Shown: in pieces, positions 2,162 to 43,331 of the stretch
Numbering within the stretch: the stretch's first letter is position 1
Layout: each line of letters starts with the position of its first letter
From: a virus
Length of the DNA stretch: 61,030 nucleotides
IMG/VR virus record: IMGVR_UViG_3300045942_000039
Location: 1 to 61,030 of that record
Direction: 5' to 3' (one strand)
Translations under genes and position numbers: made by a program
Notes under the pieces: model-generated
The model's database searches: none
Told to the model about the DNA's origin: nothing
The model's input: only the letters and a program-made list of their open reading frames with translations

Positions 2162-2662
2162 TCAGAACGGCGTGTCGTCACCGTACGACGTGCTGCTGTC
2201 GTAGCTGGTGGGGGTCGACCAGGCGTCGCCGCCCGCGTTCGCGGGGGCGTTGGCGGCTGCCCAGTCGGTGCCCTGCTGGCGGTCGCCTGCAGAGTTGGAG
2301 GCCGCGCGGGTGACTTGCGCGGTGGCGTAGCGGAGCGAGGGGCCGATCTCGTCGACTTCGAGCTCGATCGAGGTGCGGTTGTTGCCTTCGCGGTCCTGGT
2401 AGCTGCGCTGCTTGAGGCGGCCCGTGGCGATGACGCGGGAGCCCTTCTGCAGCGATCCGGCGACGTGCTCGGCGAACTCGCGCCAGACCGACGCGCGGAG
2501 GAAGAGGGCGTCGCCGTCCTTCCACTCGTTCGCCTGACGGTCGAACGTGCGCGGCGTCGACGCGATGGTGAAGTTCGCGACCGGGAGCCCGTTCTGCGTG
2601 TAACGGAGCTCGGGATCGGCCGTCAGGTTCCCGACGACGGTGATGACGGTTTCGCCGGCCAT
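2162..2662 (-). CDS. ssb: single-stranded DNA-binding protein
   Basis: [19 protein letters not shown]-fold signature, Gly/Ser-rich linker, acidic DDTPF tail. Confidence 0.9.
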
Positions 2663-3267
2663 CAGCTGCCGGTCTTCTTCCGGGTGGGCATGGTGCCTCC
2701 TGTCGTGCGTAGGTAGTACCCCGACGGTATCTGCCTGATCTGACGTCGGGCGCCGACGTAGCGCTTCGTCAGCCCGAGGCGGTGGCCGATCTCCGAGTCG
2801 GAGAGCTTGTCGCTGGCGAGCTTGCGGATCTTCTCGTCATAGTGAGCCGTGCGCCGCTCGCGCGCGCTCGGGATGCCGAGGTTCTTCCTCAGCGTCTCGA
2901 CGTGGCTCGTGACAACGCCGAGGCGGGTCGCGATCTCGCCGTCGGTCTCGAACGTGGTGTCCAGCGCGGCTTTGATCTGGTGGTCAATGCGGTTGCGGAG
3001 CACGCCGCGCGGCGGGGCGTCGTCTACGACGGTCTGCGCGCGCCAGACGAGGTAGTCGACGACGGAATCCATCCCGACCGCGTGAGCGCGGGCGGCGAGG
3101 TTCCAATAGGTCTCAGCCGGCAGCGAGAACGGTTCGATGGTGACGACGGCGTCGGTGCGCGGGCCCGGCGCGGTGATTTGCCGCACCCACACGCTGCACG
3201 TCTCGCAGAGGGGCTCGTTCTTCGCGTGGTGGATCGCCACCGTCGACGAGTCAGGCTGTGAGTGCAA
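2662..3267 (-). CDS. DNA-binding protein with two HTH-like repeats
   Basis: TTG after GAGGGGG SD (GTG 3240 is an alternative start); [25 protein letters not shown] and [25 protein letters not shown]. Confidence 0.55.
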
Positions 3268-4301: not shown

Positions 4302-5173
4302 TGCTGGGGAGCCGGGTTCTCGAGCTCGATCTGCGACGTGCCGTTCTCGCCGGCCGCGGTGATCTCGCGGGGCGCCTCTTTGGTCGCGGTGAGCGTGGTT
4401 TCGTCGACGGCCATGGCGAGGGCGAGGTGCGCGCTGCGCGGCGCGAACCGGAGGCCGTTGATCAGCCCGGTCTTCTCGACCATCTCGCGATAGTTCGACT
4501 TCCACGGCGTGTTCGGGATGTACGTGCCGTTCCGCCCGGTCTGCTCTTTGGTGTGTTGTGGGCGGCGCTCTTCGACCTGATCGAGGGTGAGGTATCGCCA
4601 GGTCGGACGCTCGGTGCCCCGGACCCAGAACATCCCGAGGACGCCCATGATCTGCGCGTCCGGGTTGTCGTGCTCAGCGCCGTAATCGAGGTCGTAGAAC
4701 GGGCCCCGCTCGCTGTTCGACCCGCGCTTGAACTTGTCGCCAACCATCACGAGCTCGGACGCGGCACCGGTAATCATGCCCGTGCGGTAGGTGAGGGCGA
4801 GCAGGCCCTTGTACCCGATCTGGAACGACGCCTCCATCCCGCCGAAGTCGTTCTCCCGCTTCGACCACGTCTGTCGGGGGATGAGGAAGCACTGCCCGAG
4901 GGCGGTGCCGATTTCGAGGTCCAGCTGCGCCGCGGTGAACATGCCGCCGAACACGGTCGCGGGGTCGCATTTGTTCAGGTCCGGGGCGGCTTTGATCTGG
5001 TTGACGACCGAGCGGAGGAAGACCCCCGCGTCGCGCTTCGGGCCGAGCTGTTTCTGCACCTCGTCGAGCACCCACGACTGGGAGATGAGGGACTGCAGCG
5101 ACGGGCGTTCGCCTGCTTGCTTGTTGCGCTGCTCGACGGACTGGGCAGCACGATCGGTGAGGCTCTGAGCCAT
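4298..5173 (-). CDS. recT: RecT-family single-strand annealing recombinase
   Basis: 291 aa; FLIPRQ...FQIGYKGLLALTYRTG core; preceded by promoter-leader copy 2. Confidence 0.8.
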   Translation of the reverse strand: MAQSLTDRAAQSVEQRNKQAGERPSLQSLISQSWVLDEVQKQLGPKRDAGVFLRSVVNQIKAAPDLNKCDPATVFGGMFTAAQLDLEIGTALGQCFLIPRQTWSKRENDFGGMEASFQIGYKGLLALTYRTGMITGAASELVMVGDKFKRGSNSERGPFYDLDYGAEHDNPDAQIMGVLGMFWVRGTERPTWRYLTLDQVEERRPQHTKEQTGRNGTYIPNTPWKSNYREMVEKTGLINGLRFAPRSAHLALAMAVDETTLTATKEAPREITAAGENGTSQIELENPAPQQ

Positions 5174-5224
5174 GGTTTCGTTCCTTCTCCGGCCCGGTGA
5201 GGGCCTGACGTTGGTGGTGTGTTC

Positions 5225-5254
5225 AGTCTATGGGCTAATCTTCGGCGGATGCCA
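5225..5254 (-). promoter_or_regulatory. conserved phage promoter copy 2 (most divergent: TTAGCCCA-TAGACT)
   Basis: motif family member upstream of recT; overlaps the methyltransferase stop codon. Confidence 0.45.
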
Positions 5255-7579: not shown

Positions 7580-7823
7580 TGGTGTTCCTTCCTCCGTGGA
7601 TCTCGAACGATCGCACGCACCGCTGACATTGCAGCGATTCGTGCAGGAGGAGCCATTCCGACTCGGGGATGCGCCGTGCACCGATGCCGACGACGATCTC
7701 ATCGCCGCACAGCATCGTGAGGTTGGCCCCGATCTTCACAGTGCGCGCCGCCGACAGGTGGAATCGGAGCGCGTGAGCGGGGAGAAGTGGATACATCGGG
7801 CGTGAGCCCAGCTTCATAACCAT
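7542..7823 (-). CDS. hypothetical protein (93 aa)
   Basis: ORF track; AGGAGG SD upstream; the C-terminal 12 codons overlap the next gene. Confidence 0.45.
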   Translation of the reverse strand: MVMKLGSRPMYPLLPAHALRFHLSAARTVKIGANLTMLCGDEIVVGIGARRIPESEWLLLHESLQCQRCVRSFEIHGGRNTNAQHPTRGRQRH

Positions 7824-7850
7824 CAGGAATGTTCCTCCTATGGTTATATC

Positions 7851-8240
7851 CTATTCCGCGTCGCCGTCCCGGGACAATTCGGAGCGCAAAAGTCGCAGCA
7901 CGCCCTTCGTTCCCTCGGCTTTGAACGCCGCCCGGATCGTCGCCGCGGCGTGCCCACCCCACGTGCCGTAACGCTCCCCAGCGATGGCCGCATACAGCGC
8001 GCACTCGGCCTGAGCCTGGCATCCGCCGCACAGAGCCTTCGCCGCCGGCGACACCCCCCGATACCCGAGGGACTTCGCGTGGAAGAACTCCTCCGGCGCG
8101 ATCGTGCACGGCGGATCCATCCGGTACCGAGTCTGCGTGATCGGATCATCGACCATCAGGGCGGCCGTCAACGCGGCCTCCGCGTCTCGCGCGGCCTGCA
8201 ACTGATCGTCGGCGGGATTCGCGGCGTCGTAGACGCTCAT
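7851..8240 (-). CDS. whiB: WhiB-like Fe-S transcription factor
   Basis: four Cys (PPC...CGGCQAQAEC) followed by GTWGG turn motif. Confidence 0.8.
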   Translation of the reverse strand: MSVYDAANPADDQLQAARDAEAALTAALMVDDPITQTRYRMDPPCTIAPEEFFHAKSLGYRGVSPAAKALCGGCQAQAECALYAAIAGERYGTWGGHAAATIRAAFKAEGTKGVLRLLRSELSRDGDAE

Positions 8241-8467
8241 CCCGCGGACAGGAGCTTGTAGACCGCCTGCGTGCCGATACCGGCGCGCTTCGCAATCTGC
8301 TCGACTGTCGCGAGTGGAGTCGCGCCTTCACGGAGCTTCTTGGCAACGGCCTGTCGCTTCGCCCCGAGCTCGATGACCTGCTGCTGTCGTGCTTTCAGGA
8401 TCGTGGTGAGAGCGGCGAACTCGTCGAGGAGTGCCGTCGCTTCGCTCGACTGCTGCTGTTGCCCCAT
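8237..8467 (-). CDS. HTH DNA-binding protein (76 aa; alternative start 8548)
   Basis: C-terminal TVEQIAKRAGIGTQAVYKLL helix-turn-helix. Confidence 0.55.
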   Translation of the reverse strand: MGQQQQSSEATALLDEFAALTTILKARQQQVIELGAKRQAVAKKLREGATPLATVEQIAKRAGIGTQAVYKLLSAG

Positions 8468-8531
8468 GCCGCCGAGATTAGCACCGGGTTCCGAAGGCAA
8501 CCGGAGCGCGGAGCGCGGAGGGCGGCAGCCC

Positions 8532-8541
8532 GTTTCCACAG
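8532..8541. repeat. direct repeat GTTTCCACAG, copy 1
   Basis: exact 10-mer also present at 8666..8675; flanks the A+T-rich region. Confidence 0.8.
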
Positions 8542-8610
8542 ATCGCATTCCACACCACAGATGGTTACCTCTGTAAGTCTTTAGTTCATTGTCTTCTGGA
8601 AAGAAGTTAG

Positions 8611-8653
8611 TAGCTCAATTTGACCTGGGGGAGGGGTAGGTCAAATTGAGCTA
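8611..8653. repeat. perfect 16-bp inverted repeat TAGCTCAATTTGACCT / AGGTCAAATTGAGCTA around an 11-nt G-rich centre
   Basis: read directly; lies in the only clearly A+T-rich stretch of the window. Confidence 0.9.
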
Positions 8654-8665
8654 TTGGTCCCACCT

Positions 8666-8675
8666 GTTTCCACAG
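8666..8675. repeat. direct repeat GTTTCCACAG, copy 2
   Basis: exact match to 8532..8541. Confidence 0.8.
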
Positions 8676-8688
8676 GGTTATGCACAGA

Positions 8689-8976
8689 TCATTGCAATCT
8701 CAGCGTGTAGTGATTCGACGTCTGCCCGGTGTCTGAACGCCATCGCGCGCGCCACGTGACGACCCCCTGCTCGCGCAGCTGCTCGAGCGCCCGCTTCACC
8801 GTCGAGACCGACAGCGCGGATCGTGCCGCGATCGCCGTGTGAGCGGGCCAGCATTCGCCGTTCCGGTCGATGAACGTCAGCAACGCCAGGTAGACGATCT
8901 TCGCTTTCGGAGCGACGTCGGGGTCGGCGAGCAGCCAGACGGGAATCGAGGATGTGCCGGTGAGATCGTCAGCCAT
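8689..8976 (-). CDS. winged-helix DNA-binding protein (replication-initiator/DnaD-N-like wHTH)
   Basis: KAKIVYLALLTFIDRNGECWPAHTAIAARSALSVSTVKRALEQLREQGVV pattern. Confidence 0.65.
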   Translation of the reverse strand: MADDLTGTSSIPVWLLADPDVAPKAKIVYLALLTFIDRNGECWPAHTAIAARSALSVSTVKRALEQLREQGVVTWRARWRSDTGQTSNHYTLRLQ

Positions 8977-9983: not shown

Positions 9984-10226
9984 TTACTTCCGTCCGTTGT
10001 CGCGCAGCTTGTAGATCCGAGCCACCGTGAGACCCGACGCTTCGCTGATGACTCGGGCGACGGTCTTCGCGTCCATCTCCTCGACGATGAGCGCGTTGCG
10101 TCGCTGCGAGTTAGCCTCGAGCGCCGCGTAGAGCTCTTTGCCCTTCTCTGTCAGCTGTCGGATCTCTTTCAGTCGAGCTTGGCTCGCCTCAGAGAGCTCG
10201 GTCTCTGCCGGCGCGGTGTCAGCCAT
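9984..10226 (-). CDS. small HTH protein (80 aa)
   Basis: internal ATG of the track ORF; TVARVISEASGLTVARIYKLRDNG. Confidence 0.6.
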   Translation of the reverse strand: MADTAPAETELSEASQARLKEIRQLTEKGKELYAALEANSQRRNALIVEEMDAKTVARVISEASGLTVARIYKLRDNGRK

Positions 10227-11803: not shown

Positions 11804-12024
11804 GTCAGACCGGCCACGGATACGGGCGTGGAGCGGAGAAGACCGTCCCACTGAGCGACGGTGAGGCGTGAGCCCGACTTGATGTCGTGCGCGACGAGCG
11901 TCGCGTTCAGGCGAGACGTCATGCGGAACCGCGCGCGGTTCGTGTCGGGGATGGTCGCTCGGTCGGTGAGCACCGCGGCGAATGCCGAGGCGGTGATCGG
12001 TTTGGGGTCGCTGGTGGACAGCAT
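11800..12024 (-). CDS. hypothetical protein (74 aa), first gene after promoter copy 3
   Basis: ORF track; ATG 6 nt after the GAAGGAGC SD of the conserved leader. Confidence 0.6.
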   Translation of the reverse strand: MLSTSDPKPITASAFAAVLTDRATIPDTNRARFRMTSRLNATLVAHDIKSGSRLTVAQWDGLLRSTPVSVAGLT

Positions 12025-12080
12025 GTTGCTCCTTCGTTCGGCCCCCGGTGCGGGGTGGTGGTGCCGGATTGCTTGCTTTC

Positions 12081-12110
12081 ATACTATGGGGTAACGCCAC
12101 CTGGCGTCCA
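12081..12110 (-). promoter_or_regulatory. conserved phage promoter copy 3 (-35 TGGACG, TTACCCCA, -10 TAGTAT)
   Basis: motif family; directly downstream of terminator 12116..12155; heads the early block. Confidence 0.65.
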
Positions 12111-12115: not shown

Positions 12116-12155
12116 CAAAAAGATGGCCGGCATCCCCCACCAAGAGGATGCCGGC
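12116..12155 (-). terminator. intrinsic terminator (10-bp stem GCCGGCATCC/GGATGCCGGC followed by CTTTTTG)
   Basis: hairpin plus T-tract on the minus strand after the lysis block. Confidence 0.75.
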
Positions 12156-12216
12156 CGGCGCACGAAGGAACATTCGAGCGAGATACCAGTCTAGGGCGCG
12201 AGTCCGACGTCGCCGA

Positions 12217-13825: not shown

Positions 13826-14725
13826 TTACGAGGGGTTTCGGACGTGCGCCCACAGCTGACCGTCGGTGCGCACCCCCGATTCCCCGGGTCGGATCGAGTC
13901 CCAGATGCTCTGCAGCATGTCGTGCTGCGCCTGAACTTCGTCGGCGTAGACGATCTCCGTCGAGTCGGTGGGCAGGCTCTCGGGGGTGAAACGCGCGAAG
14001 CCGTAGTACGGCAGCATCCAGAGCACGTGATCGCGGTTGAGGTCGCGGAGGCCAGATGCGTACCGGTCCTCAAGGCTTTCGGATGCGGGCCACGAGCCGT
14101 CGTTGACGAAGTTCGTGAGCCGCTCGCCGAACGCATTGTGGTGCGCGCGGATCGAGTATCCCGGGACCATCGTGTAGGTGACGCCGGTGACGGGGTTGCG
14201 GAAGTTGATGGGCATGTCGCGGTCCTGTTCGATCAGTTCGGAGACGGGGGTGGGGGTGCCGGTGGCCGCCGGCTGTGCGGGTGCGTTCTGGGCGCGGAGG
14301 ATGCGCTGGATTACGGGTATCGGGTCGACGTAACCGACGCCGTGCACGTAGATCTCGATGTGGCAGCACGGGCCGTCGGTGAAGCCGGAGAGGCCCTCGT
14401 GGAGGATGCCCTGCCCCTGAGCTACGCGCTCGCCGACGCGCTGACTCGAGTCCCACGGGCCGTGCGAGTAGCTGATGTCGAGCGTCTTGCCTTCGAAGCC
14501 AGAACGAACGGTGATGCCCCATCCGAAGCCGTGCTGGTTCGACGGGCGAGTCTTGCTGATCACCTCGCCGGCAAGCAGGGCAAGCGCGGGGACGGTGCCC
14601 GACCGCCGCGAGTGGGAGAAGTCCTGACCCCGGTGGCGGCGACCGCAGGGGTTGGTGCCAACGGGGCGGCAGTCGCCGAACGGGGACGTGCGCCCGCTGT
14701 TGTAGTAGTCGTCGAGGGCGGTCAC
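13826..14725 (-). CDS. endolysin, M23-type metallopeptidase with C-terminal domain of unknown type
   Basis: HRGQDF and CCHIEIYVHG (HxxxD / HxH-like) motifs; sits upstream of the holin-like and membrane-protein genes. Confidence 0.7.
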   Translation of the reverse strand: MTALDDYYNSGRTSPFGDCRPVGTNPCGRRHRGQDFSHSRRSGTVPALALLAGEVISKTRPSNQHGFGWGITVRSGFEGKTLDISYSHGPWDSSQRVGERVAQGQGILHEGLSGFTDGPCCHIEIYVHGVGYVDPIPVIQRILRAQNAPAQPAATGTPTPVSELIEQDRDMPINFRNPVTGVTYTMVPGYSIRAHHNAFGERLTNFVNDGSWPASESLEDRYASGLRDLNRDHVLWMLPYYGFARFTPESLPTDSTEIVYADEVQAQHDMLQSIWDSIRPGESGVRTDGQLWAHVRNPS

Positions 14726-14886
14726 GAGGTGGGCTCCGTAGGTGCCGTCGGGTCACCGGCGGCGATGCGCGCCGAGATGACGTCGGGAGCGTCGGGTTCG
14801 AGGGTCTCTCCCTCGGCGGGGTCGAGCTCCCACTCACCGTCGTCGCCGTCGATGGCGAGCTCGGGGTCGTACGGGTCGTCTGACAT
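14722..14886 (-). CDS. small acidic protein (54 aa)
   Basis: hand translation MSDDPYDPELAIDGDD...; GTGA overlap with the endolysin start; below the track cutoff. Confidence 0.45.
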   Translation of the reverse strand: MSDDPYDPELAIDGDDGEWELDPAEGETLEPDAPDVISARIAAGDPTAPTEPTS

Positions 14887-14925
14887 GGTGTTCCTCTCGT
14901 GCGGGGTTGGACGAACGGGCTCAGA

Positions 14926-15030
14926 TTAGGCCGGAATCCGGTCTGGGCGCCGCGAGGGCGCGCCGTACACCAGAACGAGGGAGAGGATGAGGGTCAGCAC
15001 GAGAACGGGCCGGAGAACGCGCCTGAGCAT
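14926..15030 (-). CDS. small single-TM protein (34 aa)
   Basis: hand translation MLRRVLRPVLVLTLILSLVLVYG...; TAATG overlap with the upstream gene. Confidence 0.4.
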   Translation of the reverse strand: MLRRVLRPVLVLTLILSLVLVYGAPSRRPDRIPA

Positions 15031-15212
15031 TATTCGAGGGGCGCCGTCGTCTCGGCCTGACCGGTCGTCGTGCCCGTGAAGCACTCAGCGCAGTATGGTC
15101 CCGCCTCAGATGGCTCAGCGACGTCGACGTCGAAGTCTGGGTCGAGCACGTCGTAGCGAGGGGAGTCGTCTCGGCTGACGTTCTGGCGACCACATCCGCG
15201 GCAGGTTTCCAT
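15030..15212 (-). CDS. small zinc-ribbon-like protein (60 aa)
   Basis: CRGC...CAEC pairs; internal ATG of track ORF 15030..16001. Confidence 0.5.
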   Translation of the reverse strand: METCRGCGRQNVSRDDSPRYDVLDPDFDVDVAEPSEAGPYCAECFTGTTTGQAETTAPLE

Positions 15213-15223
15213 GGCTGCTCCGA

Positions 15224-16048
15224 TCACTGGAATGCGAGAGGCGGGCCGAGGTAGGTAGCGGCCAGCTGACCGCCGACGAGGCGCTCTTCGGCGGCGGTGC
15301 TGCCGCCGATGTGCACCACCAGCGACCCGTTGTTGCAGTAGACGCCGACCTTGTCGCCGGCGCCGAGAACTGCGGCGTTGAGCTCGCCGTGCGCGTGCGT
15401 GTAGAACGAGCTCGACAGGGTGTACGCCAGACCGTCGATGAGGTATCGGTGCTTCGCCGGGGTGTCGTGGATCACGAACCAGAAGTTGGCGGTCCCGGAT
15501 CCGACCTGCATCGTCGTCCACCAGCTGAGATCGTAGACGCCAGCTTTCTTGACGGTGAGCAACCCGTCGGGCGTGTACTCGAACCAGTCGGATCCGCCGC
15601 GGCGCCGGTCTCGAGGGCTGGACCAGTTGCCGAGGAAGTTCCCCGAGGTCGCGCCGAACTGCGCGTTCGGGTGCAAGGCCACGTAGGGACCGGGGCCGAC
15701 GGGGTACCAGCCGGCCGCGACCTTCGTGACGTTCGGCGCTAGGCCCCTGGCAGTGAGCCCCGGGGCGCCGGCAACCATGAAGTACGACTCGACGAAACCG
15801 GTGTCGGTGTTCAGCCAGGAGACCTGACGGTTCGCGAGCTCGACGCGGTCGGCATCCGTCGACGGGATGCCGTAAAGCAGGTCGCGCTCGGCGGTAGACC
15901 CGGACGACGGAGCACGTGAGACGCGTCGAGCGACCTCGTTCGTCGCGCGGCGGACCTCGTCGATCTTTTCGCGGAGCCGGGACAGCTGGTTTTTGAACCA
16001 TGACGGGCCGCCGCTGGGGATGTTGTAGCCCGTGGTCGAGCCGCTCAC
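15224..16048 (-). CDS. minor tail protein / fibre-tip candidate
   Basis: ORF track 274 aa; N-terminal helical segment then beta-rich C-terminal domain; last gene of the tail block. Confidence 0.6.
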   Translation of the reverse strand: MSGSTTGYNIPSGGPSWFKNQLSRLREKIDEVRRATNEVARRVSRAPSSGSTAERDLLYGIPSTDADRVELANRQVSWLNTDTGFVESYFMVAGAPGLTARGLAPNVTKVAAGWYPVGPGPYVALHPNAQFGATSGNFLGNWSSPRDRRRGGSDWFEYTPDGLLTVKKAGVYDLSWWTTMQVGSGTANFWFVIHDTPAKHRYLIDGLAYTLSSSFYTHAHGELNAAVLGAGDKVGVYCNNGSLVVHIGGSTAAEERLVGGQLAATYLGPPLAFQ

Positions 16049-17205
16049 GTAGTCACCCGGCGTGGCTGCGCCGACACCTTGGCCCAGTCGTTCGCGAGAG
16101 TCGTGTTGATCTCGAGGAGCCGCAGCCGGTTCTCGGCGGTGCCCACACCTGGGTCGTCTTTCGTCGAGACGCGCGCGTAGTCACCAGCGCTGACGTCACT
16201 GATCTTCGTCGCGCCTGACTTGCGGACCTCGAACGACCACGTTTCGAGCACGCGATCGCCGGTGAGTACGGCCTGGTCGGCGTACTGCTGCAGCACGGGC
16301 AGGTTGATCACCGACGAGCGGTCTTCGCTGGTCTCCATGCGCCGCACGAGCGGGTCCATGTTCGGGCGCACGGCTTTCGCCATGAGCGGTTCCGCGTCGA
16401 CGCCCGGAGATCCTTCGTCCTCGGGCACGGATCCGGTCTGGTAGTTGTCGGTCGCGAGCACGGTGGCGTCGCGCGTGATCGACGCGCCGCGGATGTCAGG
16501 GCGCGGGATGCCGGTCATGTCCCACTTGTGGTCGGCGCCGGGAGCCTGGCTGATCTCGGGCTTGCCCGTGGTCATCACCCACTCGATGTGCGTGCGCTCG
16601 GGGTTGGCGTACCGCGGCTTGAACATGATGTCGGGGCCGCCGAGCACCTCGGACAGCTGCTGCAGCTTCTCGTCGAGCACGTGGAGGTCGGAGGCGCGGT
16701 AGGTGCGCTCGTTGTCGCCGAGAACGTCGGCCTCGAACACCAGCGGAACGGATCCGTTCGTCCACCCCTGAGCCTGCTGCACCAGGCGCTTCGCGATCGT
16801 CCCGAGGGAGAGCCCCGTGTAGCGGGTCTGCTTTCCCGAGGGCAGGCTGTTCTTGTCGGCGTCGACGAGCAGGGGGATGACGTAGCGGTACTGGAAGTAC
16901 GAGCGCAGCCCGGCGGCGTTGAGCGTCAACCGCTGCTTGTCGAACGCGTAGGAGTCGGTCCAGATCGGACCCGCGTTGCGGATTACGCCGTCTTCGTCCC
17001 ACGCGAGGTACGACTGCGCGGGGAGGAGCAGGGAGCGGATCGCCACGACCTTGTCGGAGCCGGGCACCTTCATCGGCAGGGGGATCGTCGCGCCGATCGA
17101 CCCCGCGGCGCCGAGTGTTTCGTTGCAGTTGCCGGCCGCCGCGGGGATGTTTCGCACGCGGATGAGGCCCGTGCTGAGGTCGCCCCCGAAGATCGTCACC
17201 GTCAC
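16045..17205 (-). CDS. minor tail protein (baseplate/Tal-like)
   Basis: ORF track 386 aa; position downstream of TMP and Dit-like gene. Confidence 0.6.
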   Translation of the reverse strand: MTVTIFGGDLSTGLIRVRNIPAAAGNCNETLGAAGSIGATIPLPMKVPGSDKVVAIRSLLLPAQSYLAWDEDGVIRNAGPIWTDSYAFDKQRLTLNAAGLRSYFQYRYVIPLLVDADKNSLPSGKQTRYTGLSLGTIAKRLVQQAQGWTNGSVPLVFEADVLGDNERTYRASDLHVLDEKLQQLSEVLGGPDIMFKPRYANPERTHIEWVMTTGKPEISQAPGADHKWDMTGIPRPDIRGASITRDATVLATDNYQTGSVPEDEGSPGVDAEPLMAKAVRPNMDPLVRRMETSEDRSSVINLPVLQQYADQAVLTGDRVLETWSFEVRKSGATKISDVSAGDYARVSTKDDPGVGTAENRLRLLEINTTLANDWAKVSAQPRRVTT

Positions 17206-17206
17206 G

Positions 17207-18286
17207 CTATTTCGTCACTTTCCACTCGGTGCCGGTCCAGGTCTTGACCTTCGCGATCTTCCAGGCCCCGGCAGCCGTCCAGACTTTCCACAGGGCAGTC
17301 TTCCACGCGGATCCGGTCCACGCTTTGCCCCCTGCAGGCATGAGGAACGGGCCCGCAAACGCCCAGTACCCGGTGTTGTCGACGTTGTTCGCCCGCACGC
17401 TGAGATAGAACGTCGACCCGGGCTTGATCTGGTCGTTGCCGGTGAATGTCTGGGAGCGCGCCGCGGCGTCGACGTCCTGCTGGGTGACTCCGGTCGTGAA
17501 GTCGGACGACGTCGACAGGCGCGTGGTGAAGCTCGAGATCGGCTTGCCGCCCGTGTCCGCCGGCGCGGTCCACGAGAGAGTGACCTTGTCGGGCGGAACG
17601 ATAACAACCTGCGGGTCGCCGGGAGCCGCGGGGTTCGATCCGAGCGTGCGACCCGACACGACGCCCGACCAGGGGCCCGCGCCGTTGTCGTTGACGCCTC
17701 GAGCGCGGAAGAACACCTCGGCGCCGGGGTTGAGGCCGGTCGCGTAGTAGGTGCCGTCGCTGGCGGCGACGCCGACGGGGAACGACGGGTCGTACGCGGC
17801 CTGCACCTCCCACCGACGAATCGGAGCGCCACCGTCGTAGTTTCCCGAGAAGCGGTAACGGAGGCTGGTCGTCGTGGGCTGGTCCACACCGATCGGGGTG
17901 GGAGCGTCGGGCGCGCGCGTGATTCGCGGCAGCTGGATTCCCGAGTTGACCTCGGTGTAACCCATCTGGTCGACGTTGGCCGAGCCCTTGATGGAGAAGT
18001 ACCGGTTGCCGTTGGCGTCGTGGTACAGCTGATCGATGTAGACGTCGCACAGTTGAAGCTCGTCGCTGTTGCGGAAGTCGTAGGAGAAGCTGTTTCCGGC
18101 GCGCTGCACACCGTCGAGGCTGAACGCGTACGACGAGTTGTTGCTACCGGACCACGTAGGCGAGTAGCTGTTCTTGCGGATCCACATGCGTCCGCGCGCG
18201 GCCGAACGGTTCTCGGCGTAGAACGTCTGCGTGTCGACCTGCTCCTCGAGGCGGAACGGCCGGTTGGGGAAATTGCTCGAGACCAT
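17207..18286 (-). CDS. minor tail protein with two fibronectin-III-like repeats
   Basis: APDAPTPIGVDQPTTTSLRYRF...W and AAPGDPQVVIVPPDKVTLSWTAPADTGGKPISSF motifs. Confidence 0.7.
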   Translation of the reverse strand: MVSSNFPNRPFRLEEQVDTQTFYAENRSAARGRMWIRKNSYSPTWSGSNNSSYAFSLDGVQRAGNSFSYDFRNSDELQLCDVYIDQLYHDANGNRYFSIKGSANVDQMGYTEVNSGIQLPRITRAPDAPTPIGVDQPTTTSLRYRFSGNYDGGAPIRRWEVQAAYDPSFPVGVAASDGTYYATGLNPGAEVFFRARGVNDNGAGPWSGVVSGRTLGSNPAAPGDPQVVIVPPDKVTLSWTAPADTGGKPISSFTTRLSTSSDFTTGVTQQDVDAAARSQTFTGNDQIKPGSTFYLSVRANNVDNTGYWAFAGPFLMPAGGKAWTGSAWKTALWKVWTAAGAWKIAKVKTWTGTEWKVTK

Positions 18287-18287
18287 G

Positions 18288-18959
18288 TCAGCTGCCGTCG
18301 ACCCAGATGTCGCCGACAGAGGGCGACGACGGGGCGGACCCGTTGAAATTCACGGTGATCTTCTTGCCGCTGATCTTGCCGGCGTTGATGTTCTCCGGGT
18401 CGGTGATCTGCGAGGCCGACACCGAGCCGATGTTGATGCTCGTGCGCGCCGGCGGGTTCGTGATGGCCGTGCCGAGTGCCGTGTTCCCGGCTCCGGCGGG
18501 CACGAGCTTTCGGCCGAGCTCGAGCGCACCCGTGGGGAGAGCCGGAAGAGACGGGGTGGACGCCGGCGTGCCCTGGACTACGTCGATGCGCGGGTCGCCA
18601 GTCTCGCTGAGCTCGTAGTCGGGCTGCACGATGTAGACCCGGTCGATGCGCGAGAGCGTCGAGTGCCCGGTCGCGGTCGGGATGTCCAGCTGATCGGGCG
18701 TGCCAAGGATGTACGCGCCCTGCCCGGTGCGGGTCGTGACGGCATAGCCCGCGCGCACGACGTACTTCATCTCGCTCGAGGACGTGAGCACCTCGAGCGG
18801 GACGTAGCTGCCTTCCTGCGCGTTCAGGACGCCGGCGACGGGCACGCCGGGGGCCGTCTGCCGGAGCAGGGCCGCGAGGATGCGCCGCATGGAGCTCGCG
18901 GGCGCGCGCTGCGCGGTGTTCGGGGAGTTGACAGCCAGGCCAGGGGCGATTGCAACCAT
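18288..18959 (-). CDS. minor tail protein (223 aa)
   Basis: ORF track; position. Confidence 0.6.
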   Translation of the reverse strand: MVAIAPGLAVNSPNTAQRAPASSMRRILAALLRQTAPGVPVAGVLNAQEGSYVPLEVLTSSSEMKYVVRAGYAVTTRTGQGAYILGTPDQLDIPTATGHSTLSRIDRVYIVQPDYELSETGDPRIDVVQGTPASTPSLPALPTGALELGRKLVPAGAGNTALGTAITNPPARTSINIGSVSASQITDPENINAGKISGKKITVNFNGSAPSSPSVGDIWVDGS

Positions 18960-18962
18960 GGT

Positions 18963-19832
18963 TTACCACCATGCCTCTCGGTACTGGGCGAGCATCGACG
19001 CGTTCGCGTCGGTGGCGCCGATCGGGTTGAAAGCGTAGGACCGCTTCGACTCCGGGAGGATGCTGCTCCACTCGGATCGGGTGAGGTACTCGCCGGTGAC
19101 GTCGTTGCCGTTGAGGAACGCGCGGCCACCGGCGTACGGGTCGAGGAGCACGGACTGTCCGACGGCGAGCGGGCCGCGGTACTCGATGATGTTCGACCCG
19201 GAGATGATCTGGAAGCCGGCGGCGCCGATCATGCCGGTCACGAGGAACCGCGGCCAGGTTTCGGCGGTGCCGCTGTTCGCGAGCTCGACGAGGCCGGTGG
19301 GGGAGAACGGGCCGAAGTCGAGGGTGCCGCCGATGGGGCCGACGAGGGGGAAGGTGAGGCCGTTCTTGTTGCTCACGCCGGGGGCGTCCGCGCGCTGCTC
19401 AATCGGGGGGCCGTACTTGCGCCCGTCCGCGGCGACGAGCGGGATCAGGAACTTCGCCTTAGTCGCGGTGAACGGGTCGACGCTGATCTGCCCGTTGACG
19501 CGGCACGTGGTGGTGCGCACGCGGCCGCTCAGCGCCGTCACCTGGACGTCGAACCGCGTCCCGAGGGGTGCGAGGCCCGAGATGTCGTCCCAGAGATCCT
19601 CAGCGTCGCTGACGCTGCTCGCCGTGGCGAATCCGGTGATCGACATGACCTTCGATCCGCGGTAGGTCCGCTCGGGGTCGAAGGCGCCGTCGGCCTGGGG
19701 CATGTTCTCGACGTTCGCGGCCACAGGCGGCGACGAGTGCCACCCGGTGAAAGCCTGCAGCTTGAGCTTCTGCCCGCCGGGGCCCGCGTCGGGCGCCGTC
19801 TCGATGCGCTTCCCGAGGAGGTCGATAATCAC
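18963..19832 (-). CDS. distal tail protein (Dit-like)
   Basis: immediately follows the tape measure gene with a 4-nt overlap; size and composition typical. Confidence 0.65.
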   Translation of the reverse strand: MIIDLLGKRIETAPDAGPGGQKLKLQAFTGWHSSPPVAANVENMPQADGAFDPERTYRGSKVMSITGFATASSVSDAEDLWDDISGLAPLGTRFDVQVTALSGRVRTTTCRVNGQISVDPFTATKAKFLIPLVAADGRKYGPPIEQRADAPGVSNKNGLTFPLVGPIGGTLDFGPFSPTGLVELANSGTAETWPRFLVTGMIGAAGFQIISGSNIIEYRGPLAVGQSVLLDPYAGGRAFLNGNDVTGEYLTRSEWSSILPESKRSYAFNPIGATDANASMLAQYREAWW

Positions 19833-22558
19833 GGGGCCACCGCTCCGCCCATTGCGTACTGCACCTTCTGCATGATGATCTCCGCGAGGTTGTCGACGTC
19901 GAGATCCTGGATCTCAGAGCGCTCGACCTTGACCTCGATCGTGATGGGTGCGGAGCCCGTCGACGACCCGGGGCTCGCCGATGACCACGGCGGCGTTCCG
20001 TACGTCCCCGTGTTCGCGTTGATGCTCCACGCCGCGGTAAGCGCCTTCGGATCCGGGATCTCCGGGATCAGGAGCGCCGACGCGCGCTGGATGCTGCGCG
20101 CCTTGTTCTGGATGCCGACTTCCATGCCCTCGCCGGTGTACTCACCGATCTCGACGAACACGCGCGACGGCGAGTGAATCTGCAGCACGTTCTTGGCCCA
20201 GTCGATCGCGCCGTTGACCGTGTCGCTGATCGCGCCGATGACGCCGTCGATCATGGACGTGATGCCGTTGATGAGCCCCTGGATGATGTCGGTTCCGACG
20301 TCGAAGAGCCACTGCCCGGCGCCCGAGAAGAACCCCATGATCTGATCCCAGAGGCCCGACACTGTGGACACGACGGTGTCGATCGCGGAGCGTACGGCGT
20401 TCACGATGTTGTTCCACACGTCGGTCAGGAACGACGAGATCGCCGACCACGTGCTGTTCCAGATGCTCGAGATCGTGTTGACGGCGTTCGTGATCGCGTT
20501 CTGCACGGACTGCACAATCGGCGTGATGAACGACACGATGGCGTTCCAGATCGTCGTGAAGAAGTCCGAGATCGCCTGCCACACGGTGTTCCACGTCGAC
20601 GAGACCATCTCGACGTACGCGGTGATGTACGCCGCGAGCCAGGCAGCAATCGGCGTGATGAAGTCGACGATGCCGTTCCAGACGCCGACGAAGAACGACG
20701 ACACGGCCTCCCACACGCCCGTCCAGAACGACACGAGGCCGGTGATGTAGTTCGTGATCATTTCGACGATGAACGTCACGATGGGCGTCAGGAAGGCAAC
20801 GATCGCGTTCCACACGGTCGTGACGACGTCGACGATCGCGTTCCAGATCGTCACCATGACCGCGGCGAAGATCAGGAAGATGTTCTGCCATGTCTCGATG
20901 TAGACGCGGATCAGCGTCGCGATGAACTCGAAGATCGGCGTGAGGAAGCCGACGATGCCGTTCCAGATGTCCATGAACGTCGTGCTGACGGCCGTCCACA
21001 CGCCGATGAAGAACGACGACACGTTGGTCCAGGCGTCGGTGAAGAACGACACGATGCCGCCGACGACGGTGGTCACGAACGAGGAGATGTTGTTCCACGT
21101 GTCGGTGAAGAACGACGCGAGCGCTCCGAAGACGGTCGTGGCGACGTTGACGATGTTCGTCCACGCCTCGCCGAGGAAGCGGGAGAACTCGGCCCAGATT
21201 GCCTGCCCGAGCTCGGTCTGCGTGAAGAAGTAGATCAGCGCGCCGACGAGGAGCATGATGATCGCGACGATCTTGATGATCGGGTTCGCTTCCATCACCG
21301 CGTTGAAGATGCCCTGCGCGACGGCGCCGGCTTTCGCGGCTCCGGCCTGGACCGTGGTCGCGCCGGTGAGGACGCTCTGCGCCGCGGCAGCGCCGGCGGA
21401 TGCCAGCTTCCAGCCGTTGATGAACGCGGTGACGCCGGAGATGACGGTCATGAGCGCGCTGATGCCGGTCGCGATCTTGCCGACGACGATGAGCACGGGG
21501 CCCGCGGCGATCGCGATGCCTGCGAACGCGAGCGCGGCGCCCTTGGCTTCGGGGGAGAGCGACTGGAACCAGTTGAGGACGTCGCGGACGCCGTTGACGA
21601 TCGTGCGGAAGGTGTCGGCCAGCACGCGTCCGATGTCGGCCGCCGCGGCCTTCATCTCGGGCGACTTGAACATGGCGGTGAGCTCGCCGAAGACCTCTTT
21701 CAGCTGGGGGTAGACCTCGTTGAGCGCCGTCGCTCCGAGGTTCGAGAACGAGGTCTTGAGGTTGGCGAGCGCGCCCTGCGCGGTGTCGCCGCTCTTGAGC
21801 GCCGCGCCCGCGACGTTCTTCTCGAGGATGTCTTTGAACTGAGCCGCCGAGATGTCGCCCTTCGACACCATGTCCTGGATCTCGGTCGCGGTCTTCCCGA
21901 ACTCCTTCTGCAGCATCGGCAGGACAAAGAGACCGTTCTCGGTCATCTGGGTCATCATGCCGACGGTGAGCTTGCCGGCGCCGTCGACCTGCGTGAGCAT
22001 GTTCGCCATCGACCCGAAGTCGGTGTTAGCGCGGGTCGCGGAGTCGCCGATGAGGGTCAGCTGGCGCGTGAGCTCCTGACCAGGTGCGATGCCGGATGCC
22101 AGAGCGGCTCCGGCCCACGTGCCCGCGTCCTGCAGAGCGAACGCGGTGCCCTCGACGGACTTGAGCACGTCGGTGCCGATGATCCGCCCGGCCTCCTCGG
22201 AGCTATACCCGAGGGATTCGATCTGCTTCGTCGCGTTCTCGATCGAGGTGAGGCGCCCCCAGCCGCCGGCAATCGCGATGCCACCGAGTGCACCGGCCGC
22301 GCCGACGGCTGGGAGGGTGATGCCCTTCGTGAGCTTGCCGCCCACGGATTCGGCCATCTTGGCGACGGAGTCGAACCCCTTCGAGATGTCCGCCCCCATG
22401 TCGGACACCTTCGCCCAGGCGGAGCGAGCCTTACGAGACTCGTCCTCCTGCTGCTGACGGAACTTCTCGGACGCCTTCTGAGCGTCGTTGAACGCCTTGA
22501 TGATGCTGGTCGGATCGCCCTGCAGATCCGCAGTCACCACGAGGACCGTCGTGCTCAC
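19829..22558 (-). CDS. tape measure protein
   Basis: 909 aa; Ala/Gly-rich helical N-terminus, long hydrophobic repeat core (WNAIV/FITPI repeats); follows the G/GT chaperones. Confidence 0.9.
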   Translation of the reverse strand: MSTTVLVVTADLQGDPTSIIKAFNDAQKASEKFRQQQEDESRKARSAWAKVSDMGADISKGFDSVAKMAESVGGKLTKGITLPAVGAAGALGGIAIAGGWGRLTSIENATKQIESLGYSSEEAGRIIGTDVLKSVEGTAFALQDAGTWAGAALASGIAPGQELTRQLTLIGDSATRANTDFGSMANMLTQVDGAGKLTVGMMTQMTENGLFVLPMLQKEFGKTATEIQDMVSKGDISAAQFKDILEKNVAGAALKSGDTAQGALANLKTSFSNLGATALNEVYPQLKEVFGELTAMFKSPEMKAAAADIGRVLADTFRTIVNGVRDVLNWFQSLSPEAKGAALAFAGIAIAAGPVLIVVGKIATGISALMTVISGVTAFINGWKLASAGAAAAQSVLTGATTVQAGAAKAGAVAQGIFNAVMEANPIIKIVAIIMLLVGALIYFFTQTELGQAIWAEFSRFLGEAWTNIVNVATTVFGALASFFTDTWNNISSFVTTVVGGIVSFFTDAWTNVSSFFIGVWTAVSTTFMDIWNGIVGFLTPIFEFIATLIRVYIETWQNIFLIFAAVMVTIWNAIVDVVTTVWNAIVAFLTPIVTFIVEMITNYITGLVSFWTGVWEAVSSFFVGVWNGIVDFITPIAAWLAAYITAYVEMVSSTWNTVWQAISDFFTTIWNAIVSFITPIVQSVQNAITNAVNTISSIWNSTWSAISSFLTDVWNNIVNAVRSAIDTVVSTVSGLWDQIMGFFSGAGQWLFDVGTDIIQGLINGITSMIDGVIGAISDTVNGAIDWAKNVLQIHSPSRVFVEIGEYTGEGMEVGIQNKARSIQRASALLIPEIPDPKALTAAWSINANTGTYGTPPWSSASPGSSTGSAPITIEVKVERSEIQDLDVDNLAEIIMQKVQYAMGGAVAP

Positions 22559-22564
22559 GGGGTC

Positions 22565-23289
22565 TCACTTTCTTTTCGCCGCCTGCATCCGCTCTTCCTG
22601 CTCGGCGTTCTCGATGGTGTAGAGCGCCGACCAGAGCGCGAGCTCGTACTCGGATATGGGGTTGTAGGCGTCGGACCCGTAGAGCAGTTCGTCGAGCGTC
22701 CGCCCTAGCTCACGGGCGAGGGAGAGGAGGAACCGAGTGCGCCCGTCGAGGGCGACTCTTTTCCCGGCTCCGAGTTGCTCCCGTTCACGATCGAGATGGC
22801 CTGCATGATCACCGCGAGGTCGGACATCGGCATCGCCGAGAGCTCCTCATCGGTCCAGTCCTCGAAGACCTTCTCGGTGCGGTTCTCGGGGTCGAAGCAC
22901 ATGAGGCGGAGCATGTTGTTGTTCAGCTGCGTGGGGTCGAGCTCCGACGGGTCGTCGCCGTCGCGCGACATCGCCCGGATCTCGTCCATCTGCCCGGCCT
23001 GCAGGCCCTTGACGTAGACCTGCTCGCCGTCGTCGAACTGGGCGATGGCGTCTTTCACGCGGCGCTTCTTGAGGCGGTCGCTGAGGCGCGCACGCGCGGC
23101 TTCGGGAACAGCGGAGGGGGTGGGTTCCGCCGGAAGCGCCTCGGAGACGGGCTGGGCGGGGGCAGGAATCGTCGGAAACGTCTGCTCGGGGGTGGTGGGG
23201 GGTTCGGCAGCCACGGGCGCCTGTACGACGTGCTCGACGTCGGCGGGGATGACGCCTACGGCAGTGCCGGCGGGAAATTCGGTGGACAT
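22565..23289 (-). CDS. tail assembly chaperone GT (product of -1 frameshift at 22759..22765)
   Basis: the -1 frame is open from the slippery site to TGA at 22565..22567 and encodes ...GRTLDELLYGSDAYNPISEYELALWSALYTIENAEQEERMQAAKRK. Confidence 0.7.
22705..23289 (-). CDS. tail assembly chaperone G
   Basis: ORF track 194 aa between the tail tube and tape measure genes. Confidence 0.8.
   Translation of the reverse strand: MSTEFPAGTAVGVIPADVEHVVQAPVAAEPPTTPEQTFPTIPAPAQPVSEALPAEPTPSAVPEAARARLSDRLKKRRVKDAIAQFDDGEQVYVKGLQAGQMDEIRAMSRDGDDPSELDPTQLNNNMLRLMCFDPENRTEKVFEDWTDEELSAMPMSDLAVIMQAISIVNGSNSEPGKESPSTGALGSSSPSPVS
22759..22765 (-). other. -1 programmed frameshift slippery heptamer G_GGA_AAA
   Basis: plus-strand ttttccc; in the correct X_XXY_YYZ phase of the G frame. 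Confidence 0.7.
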
Positions 23290-23316
23290 GGTTCCTCCTG
23301 GTTAGGGATGGGTGGT

Positions 23317-23341
23317 GGGGCGCCGCGGTGTGCGACGCCCC
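23317..23341 (-). terminator. hairpin GGGGCG/CGCCCC after the tail tube genes (attenuator candidate)
   Basis: 6-bp G+C stem with a 13-nt loop between 23351 and 23289. Confidence 0.35.
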
Positions 23342-23350
23342 GGGGGTGGC

Positions 23351-23785
23351 TTACGCGAAGACGCCGTCGTCGTTCGGGCCCGTGCGCTGGAACTCGATCG
23401 ACGCGGTGACGATGTCGCCGACGGGGGCGGACCAGTTGTACGCGGTGATGATCGTCTCGCGCTGCGTGCGCGGCTTGCCCGACTTGTTGCCCGCGGGGCC
23501 GATGACGAGCGTGCACGTCTCGAGGGTGCCCGCGTTCATCGCGTCGATGAGCGCGATCATGTGCGTGTGAAGGGCGATGTCGAAGTTGCCCGAGATCGAC
23601 GCGGTCTCGTCGTTCAGGCCCATGACGTACGTCTTGGCGCCCTTGGTCGCGCCGAAGGTCGTCGTCTCGGCCGTGTCGATCGACCGGTCGGCGCTGGCCT
23701 CCTTGAGGTACGTCGACAGCGGCACGAGCGTGCCGGAGGCGTCGTCGAAGGCAACGTACGTGTTCTTACCGTGGATTCCGGGCAT
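23351..23785 (-). CDS. tail tube protein paralog, short form (144 aa)
   Basis: N-terminus MPGIHGKNTYVAF...SADRSIDTAETTTFGA..GAKTYV aligns by eye with the neighbouring 242-aa protein. Confidence 0.65.
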   Translation of the reverse strand: MPGIHGKNTYVAFDDASGTLVPLSTYLKEASADRSIDTAETTTFGATKGAKTYVMGLNDETASISGNFDIALHTHMIALIDAMNAGTLETCTLVIGPAGNKSGKPRTQRETIITAYNWSAPVGDIVTASIEFQRTGPNDDGVFA

Positions 23786-23786
23786 C

Positions 23787-24515: not shown

Positions 24516-24727
24516 CAGGCGTCCACTCCCGGCGCGCTGGCGTCCACCGCGGCATCCGTGGCGTCCACCTCGAGCGCTTTCGTGTCCTGTTCGACCTTCT
24601 CGAGCACGCCTTCGCGCACCAGGAAGTCGCGATCGCGCTTCGGCAGCGCGGAGTCGTCGATGGTGTCGCCGGCGTCGACGCGCGTACCGTCCGGGCCGTA
24701 GTTGAACCCGCGAGTGGCTGTGAGCAT
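24515..24727 (-). CDS. hypothetical protein (70 aa)
   Basis: ORF track; 1-nt overlap with the tail tube gene start. Confidence 0.55.
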   Translation of the reverse strand: MLTATRGFNYGPDGTRVDAGDTIDDSALPKRDRDFLVREGVLEKVEQDTKALEVDATDAAVDASAPGVDA

Positions 24728-24769
24728 GGCTCCTCCTCGCGGTCGAGACTAGGAGCGCTCGCCCCCCCG

Positions 24770-26605: not shown

Positions 26606-26623
26606 GGGCCCGTTCTCTCTGGG

Positions 26624-27076: not shown

Positions 27077-27168
27077 GATGACTCCTTTGGTCGTGGTTCG
27101 CGCCATAGTCTCACACCCCCGCGGAGGACCATCCAGGAGCGGCGCGCCGATCGCCGCTCCTGGATGGC

Positions 27169-32968: not shown

Positions 32969-32981
32969 GGCGGTCGCTCTC

Positions 32982-36488: not shown

Positions 36489-36538
36489 GGGCGTTCCTTC
36501 GTCGGTCATGGTGTCGATTCTTCCATGGGGGTACGACG

Positions 36539-43311: not shown

Positions 43312-43331
43312 CCCGACCGGTTACCGGCCCG

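Follow-up and report, generated by a model that had tools for sequence, protein, structure and literature searches.

What are the eight near-identical sites that recur along one strand of the viral DNA recorded in IMG/VR as IMGVR_UViG_3300045942_000039, and what reads them? The initial annotation of this stretch (61,030 nucleotides (nt), positions 1 to 61,030 of the record; hereafter the window) described the site at 12081-12110 as one of eight promoters in which an 8-nt box, lying in the spacer between the -35 and -10 hexamers, is conserved as tightly as the hexamers themselves and might be bound by a phage regulator. Our analysis leads to a reading that we regard as fairly probable, in which the eight sites would be promoters used by host RNA polymerase with its primary sigma factor, each fronting an 85-90-nt regulatory module of an early transcription unit, and a phage-encoded factor would read the box.

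We numbered the copies 1 to 8 in ascending order of position. The core, TTA(C/G)CCCA-TAG(T/A)(A/G/C)T, is present in eight copies, all on the minus (coding) strand, where 0.3-0.4 would be expected by chance. Searching for TTACCCCATAGT with up to two mismatches gave eight matches, at 851, 5227, 12083, 39635, 43241, 48494, 50797 and 52441, compared with a mean of 0.38 in shuffled versions of the window, none of which (0 of 100) reached eight; all eight matches were on the minus strand, as were all genes, which bears out the orientation given in the initial annotation. The 8-mer TTASCCCA likewise has eight occurrences over both strands, all of them at these sites (0.34 expected), so the motif is not equally common elsewhere. 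The scan of both strands with a position weight matrix (PWM) that had been proposed leaves a clear gap: with a 20-nt matrix the eight sites score 26-37 bits and the next-best position on either strand scores 14.8 bits. An nhmmer profile drawn from the window and its sole detected relative, Microbacterium phage ValentiniPuff (MH825712), gave eight matches at E<=3e-6, followed by the next at E=4.5, and neither the PWM nor the profile found a ninth copy in the window. Below threshold in both searches, GTACCCCCATGGAAGAATCG at 36515-36534 (-), which lies after a hairpin at 36540-36569, resembles the box, the -10 hexamer and the GAA block that follows it, with an indel and with TANNNT lost, and is possibly a decayed ninth copy.

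The eight ranges listed in the initial annotation coincide exactly with the spans from -35 to -10. That extent is right as far as it goes, but conservation runs ~60 nt further downstream, into a structured leader that had been missed. Some other details of the description also needed adjustment. The decamer T(G/C/A)GACGCC(A/G)G at the upstream end holds strictly in four copies and only loosely in the other four. All the sites had been described as intergenic, but copies 1 and 2 lie partly inside the upstream gene: there the -35 hexamer and the upstream spacer, as far as the TAG in the box, overlap coding sequence, the gene terminating at this TAG (859-861 and 5235-5237). Because the stop codon falls inside the box, both copies carry TTAGCCCA, with G at box position 4. 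This variant had been attributed to copy 2 only, and the box, although it behaves as a selected element in its own right, is to that extent not invariant. The sharing reported downstream of copies 7 and 8 is real and comes to a further 18 nt (GTAAAAACATCAACACGG).

As the initial annotation had recognised, all eight copies have a -10 hexamer of the form TANNNT (TAGTAT in four, TAGTGT in three and TAGACT in one) and, 17 nt (four copies) or 18 nt (four copies) upstream of it, a -35-like hexamer. The -35-like hexamers (TGGACG, TCGACG, TAGACG, TGGACT, TTGCAC and TGGCAT) match TTGACA partially, at 3-4 of six positions. At actinobacterial promoters with mapped transcription start sites, TANNNT is found at 91-97% of starts, the -35 consensus is nTGAC or ttgnca, the spacing is 17-19 nt (18-19 nt in Streptomyces), and transcripts begin at a purine preceded by C (PMC6614810, PMC3890552). 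Most of the copies have a C followed by a purine 6-7 nt past the -10 hexamer, and each precedes a gene with a strong Shine-Dalgarno sequence; an extended -10 element (TGn) is absent from the copies. Together, the actinobacterial geometry, the bias in strand and position, and the conservation over deep divergence make a promoter the best-supported reading of these sites, and one that is well supported in silico; initiation, timing, the identity of the polymerase and a reader for the box are what we infer from there.

The window (68% GC, with coding potential confined to the minus strand) has its first 127 nt repeated identically at 60904-61030, and this terminal identity (a k-mer overlap) indicates a circular assembly and a complete genome of ~60.9 kb. 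ValentiniPuff is a singleton described by Jacobs-Sera et al., 2020 (PMC7302621). The two phages have 48 of the 95 called genes in common, in collinear order and at 28-72% amino acid identity; their portal genes are 76% identical in nucleotides and 67% in amino acids, and in both genomes the structural operon is split by a long array of small genes, with the protease gene on one side and the capsid genes on the other. No closer relative was found in phage records, IMG/VR, metagenome contigs or GTDB genomes: in tblastn searches of phage records only ValentiniPuff exceeded 50% identity, and the relatives returned by portal searches of IMG/VR, metagenome contigs and GTDB genomes were at just 35-46%. 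The seven IMG/VR loci among them held no high-GC match to the PWM, and a scan of IMG/VR for exact patterns of the window-type and ValentiniPuff-type cores returned only single chance matches per contig.

ValentiniPuff carries the same module, at 8170, 10167, 12161, 13391, 19210, 22382, 48720 and 60921, and has an extra divergent copy before RecT (TTGCCC, 17 nt, TAGGAT, with TCACACCA). Its layout consists of cTTGCAc, 17 nt to TAGTAT, the box TCATACC(C/A), GAA and the same leader; copy 8 of the window has the ValentiniPuff-type TTGCAC, also with a 17-nt spacing. All eight units of the window correspond one-to-one and collinearly to units of ValentiniPuff. The shared positions are after the protease gene and its hairpin, at four points in the small-gene array, after the large hairpin at the lysis end (itself homologous), before RecT, and after the resolvase gene, and in both phages the copy upstream of RecT is the divergent one. 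The modules stood at their present positions already in the common ancestor.

Within this shared frame, the box is the sole block that is kept within each genome yet diverged between the two. Aligned on the -10 hexamer, the boxes (positions -20 to -13) read T-T-A-(C/G)-C-C-C-A in the window and T-C-A-T-A-C-C-(C/A) in ValentiniPuff, such that four positions are common to both phages (T-20, A-18, C-15 and C-14) and four are fixed by lineage. Mean pairwise identity of the box is 0.95 among window copies, 0.86 among ValentiniPuff copies and 0.57 between the two sets; the corresponding values are 0.85, 0.85 and 0.84 for the -10 hexamer and 0.86, 0.85 and 0.83 for the GAA block, and the upstream half of the spacer and the upstream flank are at ~0.3 in all three comparisons. 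The copies upstream of RecT also keep the box type of their own lineage, TTAGCCCA in the window and TCACACCA in ValentiniPuff. A box that changed in concert while its flanks drifted suggests selection by a lineage-specific reader, as opposed to gene conversion without selection or a duplication of recent date. Sigma-A hardly varies among Actinobacteria in the regions that read DNA, which favours a phage-encoded factor, and we put the chances that the box is recognised by such a lineage-specific, phage-encoded factor at roughly even.

In the mechanism that we propose, host RNA polymerase with a primary (sigma-A/sigma-70-type) sigma factor would read the eight promoters, transcripts would start ~7 nt after the -10 hexamer, and the eight modules would head eight non-structural (early, pre-late) transcription units. 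The box, which makes up the last 8 nt of the spacer, would be bound by a phage-encoded factor that controls the eight promoters together, for instance by turning early transcription off or by adjusting it through feedback. A possible alternative, on balance unlikely, is that the box is contacted by the host holoenzyme itself, as a spacer or extended -10-like element and possibly with the help of RbpA or CarD, in which case there would be no phage regulator and the promoters would be very strong, factor-independent and able to capture host transcription early. Such a contact could compensate for -35 hexamers with only 3-4 matches in six, and it would suit a box that always adjoins the -10 hexamer and is never alone, that has half of its positions the same in both phages, and that shows no conserved dyad symmetry in the window copies. 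It sits poorly with the four of eight box positions that are fixed differently while the -10 hexamer, GAA and the leader motifs agree, because with a near-invariant sigma-A two Microbacterium-type hosts should not need different boxes; the promoter-like motifs of cluster EC phages, moreover, have no such box upstream of TAGACT, and the copies lack the TGn of an extended -10.

If a phage factor reads the box, which protein might it be? The initial annotation had named a WhiB-like protein, several helix-turn-helix (HTH) proteins and the protein at 38724-39188. The WhiB assignment was confirmed (7851-8171), but for the proteins at 2662-3267 and 38724-39188 any annotation as DNA-binding is weak or lacking, and that at 8689-8976 (-) looks like a replication initiator with a winged HTH (PHROG 270/391, Pfam HTH_36/DnaD_N). 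Candidates that are common to ValentiniPuff and lie downstream of box promoters are WhiB and the HTH-type proteins at 9984-10226, 8237-8539 and 2662-3267. The protein at 8689-8976 is unlikely to be the regulator of the box because of its replication-initiator-type domain and its position beside an AT-rich region with iterons and an inverted repeat. This region, the gap at 8540-8688, contains a perfect 15-bp inverted repeat (8612-8626 and 8638-8652) and iteron repeats of the CTGTGGAAA type, three copies of which occur in ValentiniPuff at 52855-52900, and is probably the replication origin. Another inverted repeat, ATAACCAT...ATGGTTAT around AGGAGGAAC, lies at 7816-7847 (-) in the 271-nt gap downstream of the WhiB gene. 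A dimeric operator was tried as a general model for the box and set aside: in ValentiniPuff the box, the -10 hexamer and the following GA form a perfect 6-bp palindrome, TCATAC-N4-GTATGA, but the window has no conserved dyad, with only copies 7 and 8 showing a 6-bp TTTTAC/GTAAAA.

Host RNA polymerase is the likely enzyme because no phage sigma factor or RNA polymerase turned up in the genes scanned. Pfam and PHROG scans of the non-structural genes found no such domain, nor did a Pfam scan of ten further genes, among them open reading frames (ORFs) of 997 and 473 amino acids, with roughly two dozen capsid, tail and lysis genes (at about 14,700-27,100 and 32,000-33,400) falling outside the scans; the annotation of ValentiniPuff lists neither a sigma factor nor an RNA polymerase. 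A host enzyme, in turn, argues for early expression. We give hardly any credence to a phage-encoded sigma factor or single-subunit RNA polymerase as the reader and dropped it, there being no such domain among the genes scanned. It would fit a long, near-identical and asymmetric motif found upstream of genes on one strand only, TTACCCCATAGT loosely resembles T7/T3 promoters, and other Microbacterium phage clusters with repeated motifs encode a sigma factor (PMC7302621). However, the canonical arrangement of -35, 17-18 nt and -10 is kept in both phages, the 997-residue ORF has no homologue in ValentiniPuff even though ValentiniPuff has the module, and a polymerase for the earliest genes, if those are what the module drives, must already exist in the cell. 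The 997- and 473-residue ORFs (27169-30162 and 30487-31908, minus strand) sit between the capsid and head-tail connector genes; neither has a Pfam match or a ValentiniPuff homologue, and the tape-measure homologue is at 19829-22399.

The full module extends over ~85-90 nt from the -35 hexamer to the start codon and includes a leader of 48-55 nt in the window and of 48-68 nt over both phages. The -10 hexamer is followed by GAA and a CA-rich stretch; next come a GC hairpin, whose sequence varies, and the Shine-Dalgarno sequence GAAGGAAC, ahead of the start codon. The predicted leader shape has two tiers, with a 4-5-bp outer stem, a 5' internal loop (A)CCACCA(A) without a 3' bulge, and a 3-6-bp inner hairpin, and it is the minimum-energy fold of 11 of the 16 leaders in the two phages and the centroid fold of a twelfth, whereas 0.46% of dinucleotide shuffles give this architecture. 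From the stem-loop to the GAAGG of the Shine-Dalgarno sequence there are 1-9 nt (21 nt in one ValentiniPuff leader). The stems vary in sequence from copy to copy (CGGC/GCCG, GGGCC/GGCCC, CGCAC/GUGCG, UGCAU/AUGCG, GGUC/GACC and CGGU/ACCG). In a register-preserving alignment, which was built by hand and padded with N (plain MAFFT scrambled the stems), 11 of 11 base pairs were changed on both sides, and the covariation score was 0.558, compared with 0.125 for shuffled alignments and at most 0.076 when the pairing partner was slid. A search of the whole window, leaders included, brought no Rfam 15 family up to its gathering score. An intrinsic terminator or attenuator was rejected as the function of the leader, given that no U-tract follows the hairpin. 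Two further gaps, at 51867-51964 and 45914-46049 (both minus strand), are leader-like: two hairpins with a CA-rich CCACCA stretch between them lead up to the same Shine-Dalgarno sequence, yet the promoter core is absent. The latter gap is homologous to ValentiniPuff 14677-14816; the occurrence of the pattern at promoter-less gaps suggests that it may partly be a general feature of the phage's translation-initiation regions.

The compensatory changes in the leader start downstream of the predicted start site, which speaks against the idea that the whole motif acts as RNA in read-through transcripts, for example as a site of RNase processing between cassettes. We consider this idea very unlikely. 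In its favour, only 3-4 of the eight copies follow a terminator, which makes read-through across the others plausible, and the ValentiniPuff box and -10 hexamer would fold as a 6-bp RNA hairpin. The window copies, however, are unable to form that hairpin, and a -35-like element kept at a fixed distance in both phages would have no role at the RNA level.

Several points weigh against host promoters with a phage-read box and a conserved leader. A generic sigma-70 scan with a threshold of 9/12 called none of the eight sites, because their match to the Escherichia coli consensus is only ~8/12. A box that is not found apart from the -10 hexamer fits an integral promoter element equally well; its lineage-specificity comes from one comparison between the two genomes with the module, and a preference of the RNA polymerase of a particular host could also be at work. 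Because the window box has no palindrome of the TCATAC-N4-GTATGA type, a shared dimeric repressor transfers poorly from one phage to the other. For the leader, the 100% pairing follows by construction because the alignment was fitted by hand to the fold of each copy, the architecture test was defined only after inspection of the data, and the stability of the individual leaders is unremarkable (z from +0.4 to -2.1).

Which genes, then, do the modules head? The packaging, portal and protease genes (~60740-52516) form a motif-free block that is ended by a hairpin at 52478-52510 (-) (-27.7 kcal/mol, tail GUUCUUUCC). Behind the protease gene and this hairpin lies module 8 (52379-52467; all eight modules are on the minus strand), the positional orthologue of ValentiniPuff 8170, with its -35 TTGCAC at 52462-52467, box TTACCCCA at 52445-52452, -10 TAGTGT at 52439-52444, and a leader at 52379-52432 with the stem-loop at 52398-52425 and the ATG at 52379-52381. 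Module 7 (50735-50823) has its -35 TAGACG at 50818-50823, which includes the TAG stop codon of the upstream gene, its box at 50801-50808, -10 TAGTGT at 50795-50800, stem-loop at 50751-50780 and ATG at 50735-50737. Module 6 (48437-48521) comprises -35 TCGACG (48516-48521), box (48498-48505), -10 TAGTAT (48492-48497), stem-loop (48455-48485) and ATG (48437-48439). At module 5 (43180-43268), which has a weaker hairpin upstream (43307-43336), the -35 TGGACG is at 43263-43268, the box at 43245-43252, the -10 TAGTAT at 43239-43244, the stem-loop (from the centroid fold) at 43200-43230 and the ATG at 43180-43182. Module 4 (39575-39661) lies directly downstream of a hairpin at 39668-39701 (-) (-31.1 kcal/mol, z=-5.3; tail GUCGU, a weak U-tract) and has its -35 TGGACG at 39656-39661, box at 39639-39646, -10 TAGTGT at 39633-39638, stem-loop at 39596-39623 and ATG at 39575-39577. 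These five modules head the array cassettes, which run from 52441 down to 34383 and of which the last is closed ahead of the capsid genes by a strong hairpin at 34349-34382 (-) (tail GUCGUUUCAC).

The second motif-free block, of capsid, tail and lysis genes (~34300-12217), is ended by a hairpin of the intrinsic-terminator type at 12125-12156 (-) (14 bp, -30.5 kcal/mol, followed by AUCUUUUUG), which is homologous to a hairpin upstream of ValentiniPuff 48720. Module 3 (12022-12110), the site from which the analysis set out and the positional orthologue of ValentiniPuff 48720, consists of -35 TGGACG (12105-12110), box (12087-12094), -10 TAGTAT (12081-12086), stem-loop (12039-12066) and ATG (12022-12024), and heads the right-arm unit of replication and regulation genes from 12083, which includes the HTH proteins, the replication initiator with the probable origin, WhiB and a YqaJ exonuclease. 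Module 2 (5171-5254), the most divergent, has its -35 TGGCAT at 5249-5254, box TTAGCCCA at 5231-5238, -10 TAGACT at 5225-5230, a single hairpin in the leader at 5191-5205 and the ATG of RecT at 5171-5173; the unit from 5227 is an operon of RecT, HNH, SSB and resolvase genes. Module 1 (788-877), the positional orthologue of ValentiniPuff 60921, has its -35 TGGACT at 872-877, box TTAGCCCA at 855-862, -10 TAGTAT at 849-854, stem-loop at 806-836 and a TTG start codon at 788-790, and the gene that ends in its box is a homologue of the ValentiniPuff RuvC-like resolvase. From 851, past the resolvase gene, a short unit crosses the circular junction to a hairpin at 60760-60794 (-) (tail UCCUUCGUGUC), which parts it from a tRNA-like element and the packaging genes.

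This arrangement agrees with what had been claimed of the units. Three copies do lie directly after terminator hairpins (12125-12156, 39668-39701 and 52478-52510), each with a T-containing tail, and, module 5 with its weaker hairpin aside, the remaining four have no upstream hairpin. The statement that no copy precedes the packaging, capsid, tail or lysis genes is likewise correct, given that the hairpin at 60760-60794 stands between copy 1 and the packaging genes; copy 1 faces these genes across the circular junction, and this hairpin is the only separator. The motif marks a distinct set of transcription units, made up of non-structural blocks only and closed by hairpins, and with strong hairpins setting these units apart from the structural operons, an early (pre-late) class is the most likely assignment.

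Gene content differs in a regional manner between the two phages: 11 of 38 genes are shared in the array, 23 of 34 in the structural region and 8 of 8 in the RecT operon, and the cassettes after modules 8 and 1 have zero genes in common with ValentiniPuff, yet orthologous modules flank both. This turnover is compatible with a role in exchange resembling that of the PeSL cassettes of T4-type phages, in which early sigma-70-like promoters carrying stem-loops are set within hyperplastic regions and bring about modular shuffling (PMC2839356, PMC4122927). Taken to its limit, the idea would make the modules mainly recombination substrates and the uniformity of the box a product of gene conversion or concerted evolution, which we find quite improbable. 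The PeSL precedent, the turnover between conserved modules (including the two cassettes wholly replaced), the five of eight modules that are spread through 18 kb of small genes, most of them of unknown function, the three or four that follow hairpins and the additional 18 nt shared by copies 7 and 8 all agree with it. However, conversion alone should also homogenise the spacer and the -35 flank, both of which stay at ~0.3, and the identical core, at 17-20 nt, would be a short substrate for homologous recombination. No exchange event is documented by a junction, a mini-circle or a pair of close genomes, and recombination is compatible with promoter function, which makes it no true alternative to a promoter. 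A tentative extension of the promoter reading, which we think rather unlikely, is that the modules constitute a three-part device undescribed in actinobacteriophages, comprising the box as operator for a co-evolving global regulator of the phage, a cis-acting leader RNA and a PeSL-like point of cassette exchange; the leader, with its ACCACCA loop, would act on the antitermination, stability or translation of every early unit.

The surroundings of the modules hold some further features. Within the small-gene array, 46050-47267 (-) encodes a full-length S-adenosylmethionine synthetase, MetK (three of three Pfam domains, E down to 2e-67), and the gene at 59232-60617 combines a phage DAM-like domain with a GNAT-like domain; between them, the two genes may point to a role in DNA modification or counter-defence. 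At the head of the packaging operon, just past the hairpin at 60760-60794, ARAGORN called a tRNA-like gene with an aberrant anticodon loop ('tRNA-???') at 60641-60711 (-). ValentiniPuff has a tRNA-like gene at the syntenic position (14355-14427), although its published description gives it no tRNA genes. The element might be a processing signal or another kind of tRNA-like element. Upstream of it, 60712-60745 (-) and ValentiniPuff 62305-62325 contain GCTA(C/T)G(G/C)T(A/G)ATC, a candidate packaging-operon promoter that has a TANNNT -10 and no recognisable -35 and may be of the activator-dependent late type.

Transcription in Microbacterium phages is essentially unmapped, and the repeated motifs of other clusters have no assigned function. 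Against this background the module offers a clean comparative signal, with eight collinear orthologous copies in phages whose shared proteins are 28-72% identical. The set amounts to a map of early-gene promoters in which the -35, -10, box and leader stem-loop could be swapped between phages, and it might supply strong, compact promoter and 5'-UTR parts for Microbacterium genetics. If the box is an operator, it would constitute a global early-gene switch in a lytic actinophage, and if the modules mediate cassette exchange, the PeSL mechanism would extend beyond T4-like phages.

The module family is real and statistically unambiguous, and the kind of phage control element that it represents is already familiar. 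The SAS and ESAS elements of Cluster K mycobacteriophages and Cluster EF Microbacterium phages are also repeats before a subset of genes, with a uniform ribosome-binding region. SAS, however, stands immediately before the start codon and replaces the ribosome-binding site, whereas the core described here lies 54-63 nt upstream and is accompanied by a separate Shine-Dalgarno sequence, GAAGGAAC, so that it does not belong to that class. The leaders recall those of lambdoid phages (lambda nut boxA/boxB and HK022 put), in which a linear motif and a stem-loop follow an early promoter and hairpins lie inside operons. This is an analogy only, because the loop sequences of the window are not conserved, the two kinds of leader are not alike in sequence, nothing points to antitermination, and an N-like protein did not turn up.

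Closer in host are the repeated intergenic motifs without assigned function of Microbacterium clusters EC (18 bp, 12 copies) and EI (30 bp, 5 copies) (PMC7302621); the passages of that paper that were searched report no motif for ValentiniPuff. Like the modules, the EC and EI motifs come from phages of the same host genus, are asymmetric, stand in short gaps along the direction of transcription, and occur among non-structural genes and small genes inserted in the structural operon. The EC motif in Quhwah has, in addition, a TANNNT -10 (TAGACT) with a conserved upstream block ~15-18 nt away. Unlike the modules, the EC motif is conserved past the -10 and stands 21-30 nt before the start codon; in the window the extra conserved block is upstream of the -10, and the leader measures 48-55 nt. 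EC and EI phages also encode a sigma factor, of which there is none in the genes scanned here. The published EC/EI-type motif TAGaCTATaGGTgTaAgC has no sequence match to the window module, and a link to the EC motif was rejected because the likeness appears only in reverse complement, whereas the Quhwah copies are on the coding strand and have a different architecture.

In organisation, the modules appear closest to the PeSL cassettes of T4-type phages (Arbiol et al., 2010; Comeau et al., 2014). In both, near-identical promoters of the sigma-70 type recur, several of them preceded by a stem-loop terminator, and both punctuate regions of small, non-essential genes of unknown function that interrupt the core genes and turn over between modules; the concentration in hyperplastic small-gene regions that characterises PeSL is found here as well. 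The differences are that PeSL cassettes belong to T4-like myoviruses and the present modules to a high-GC, actinobacterial, siphovirus-like genome, that a stem-loop accompanies only 3-4 of the eight copies (strong at three and weaker at 43241), and that the modules described here add a structured 5' leader and a lineage-specific spacer box.

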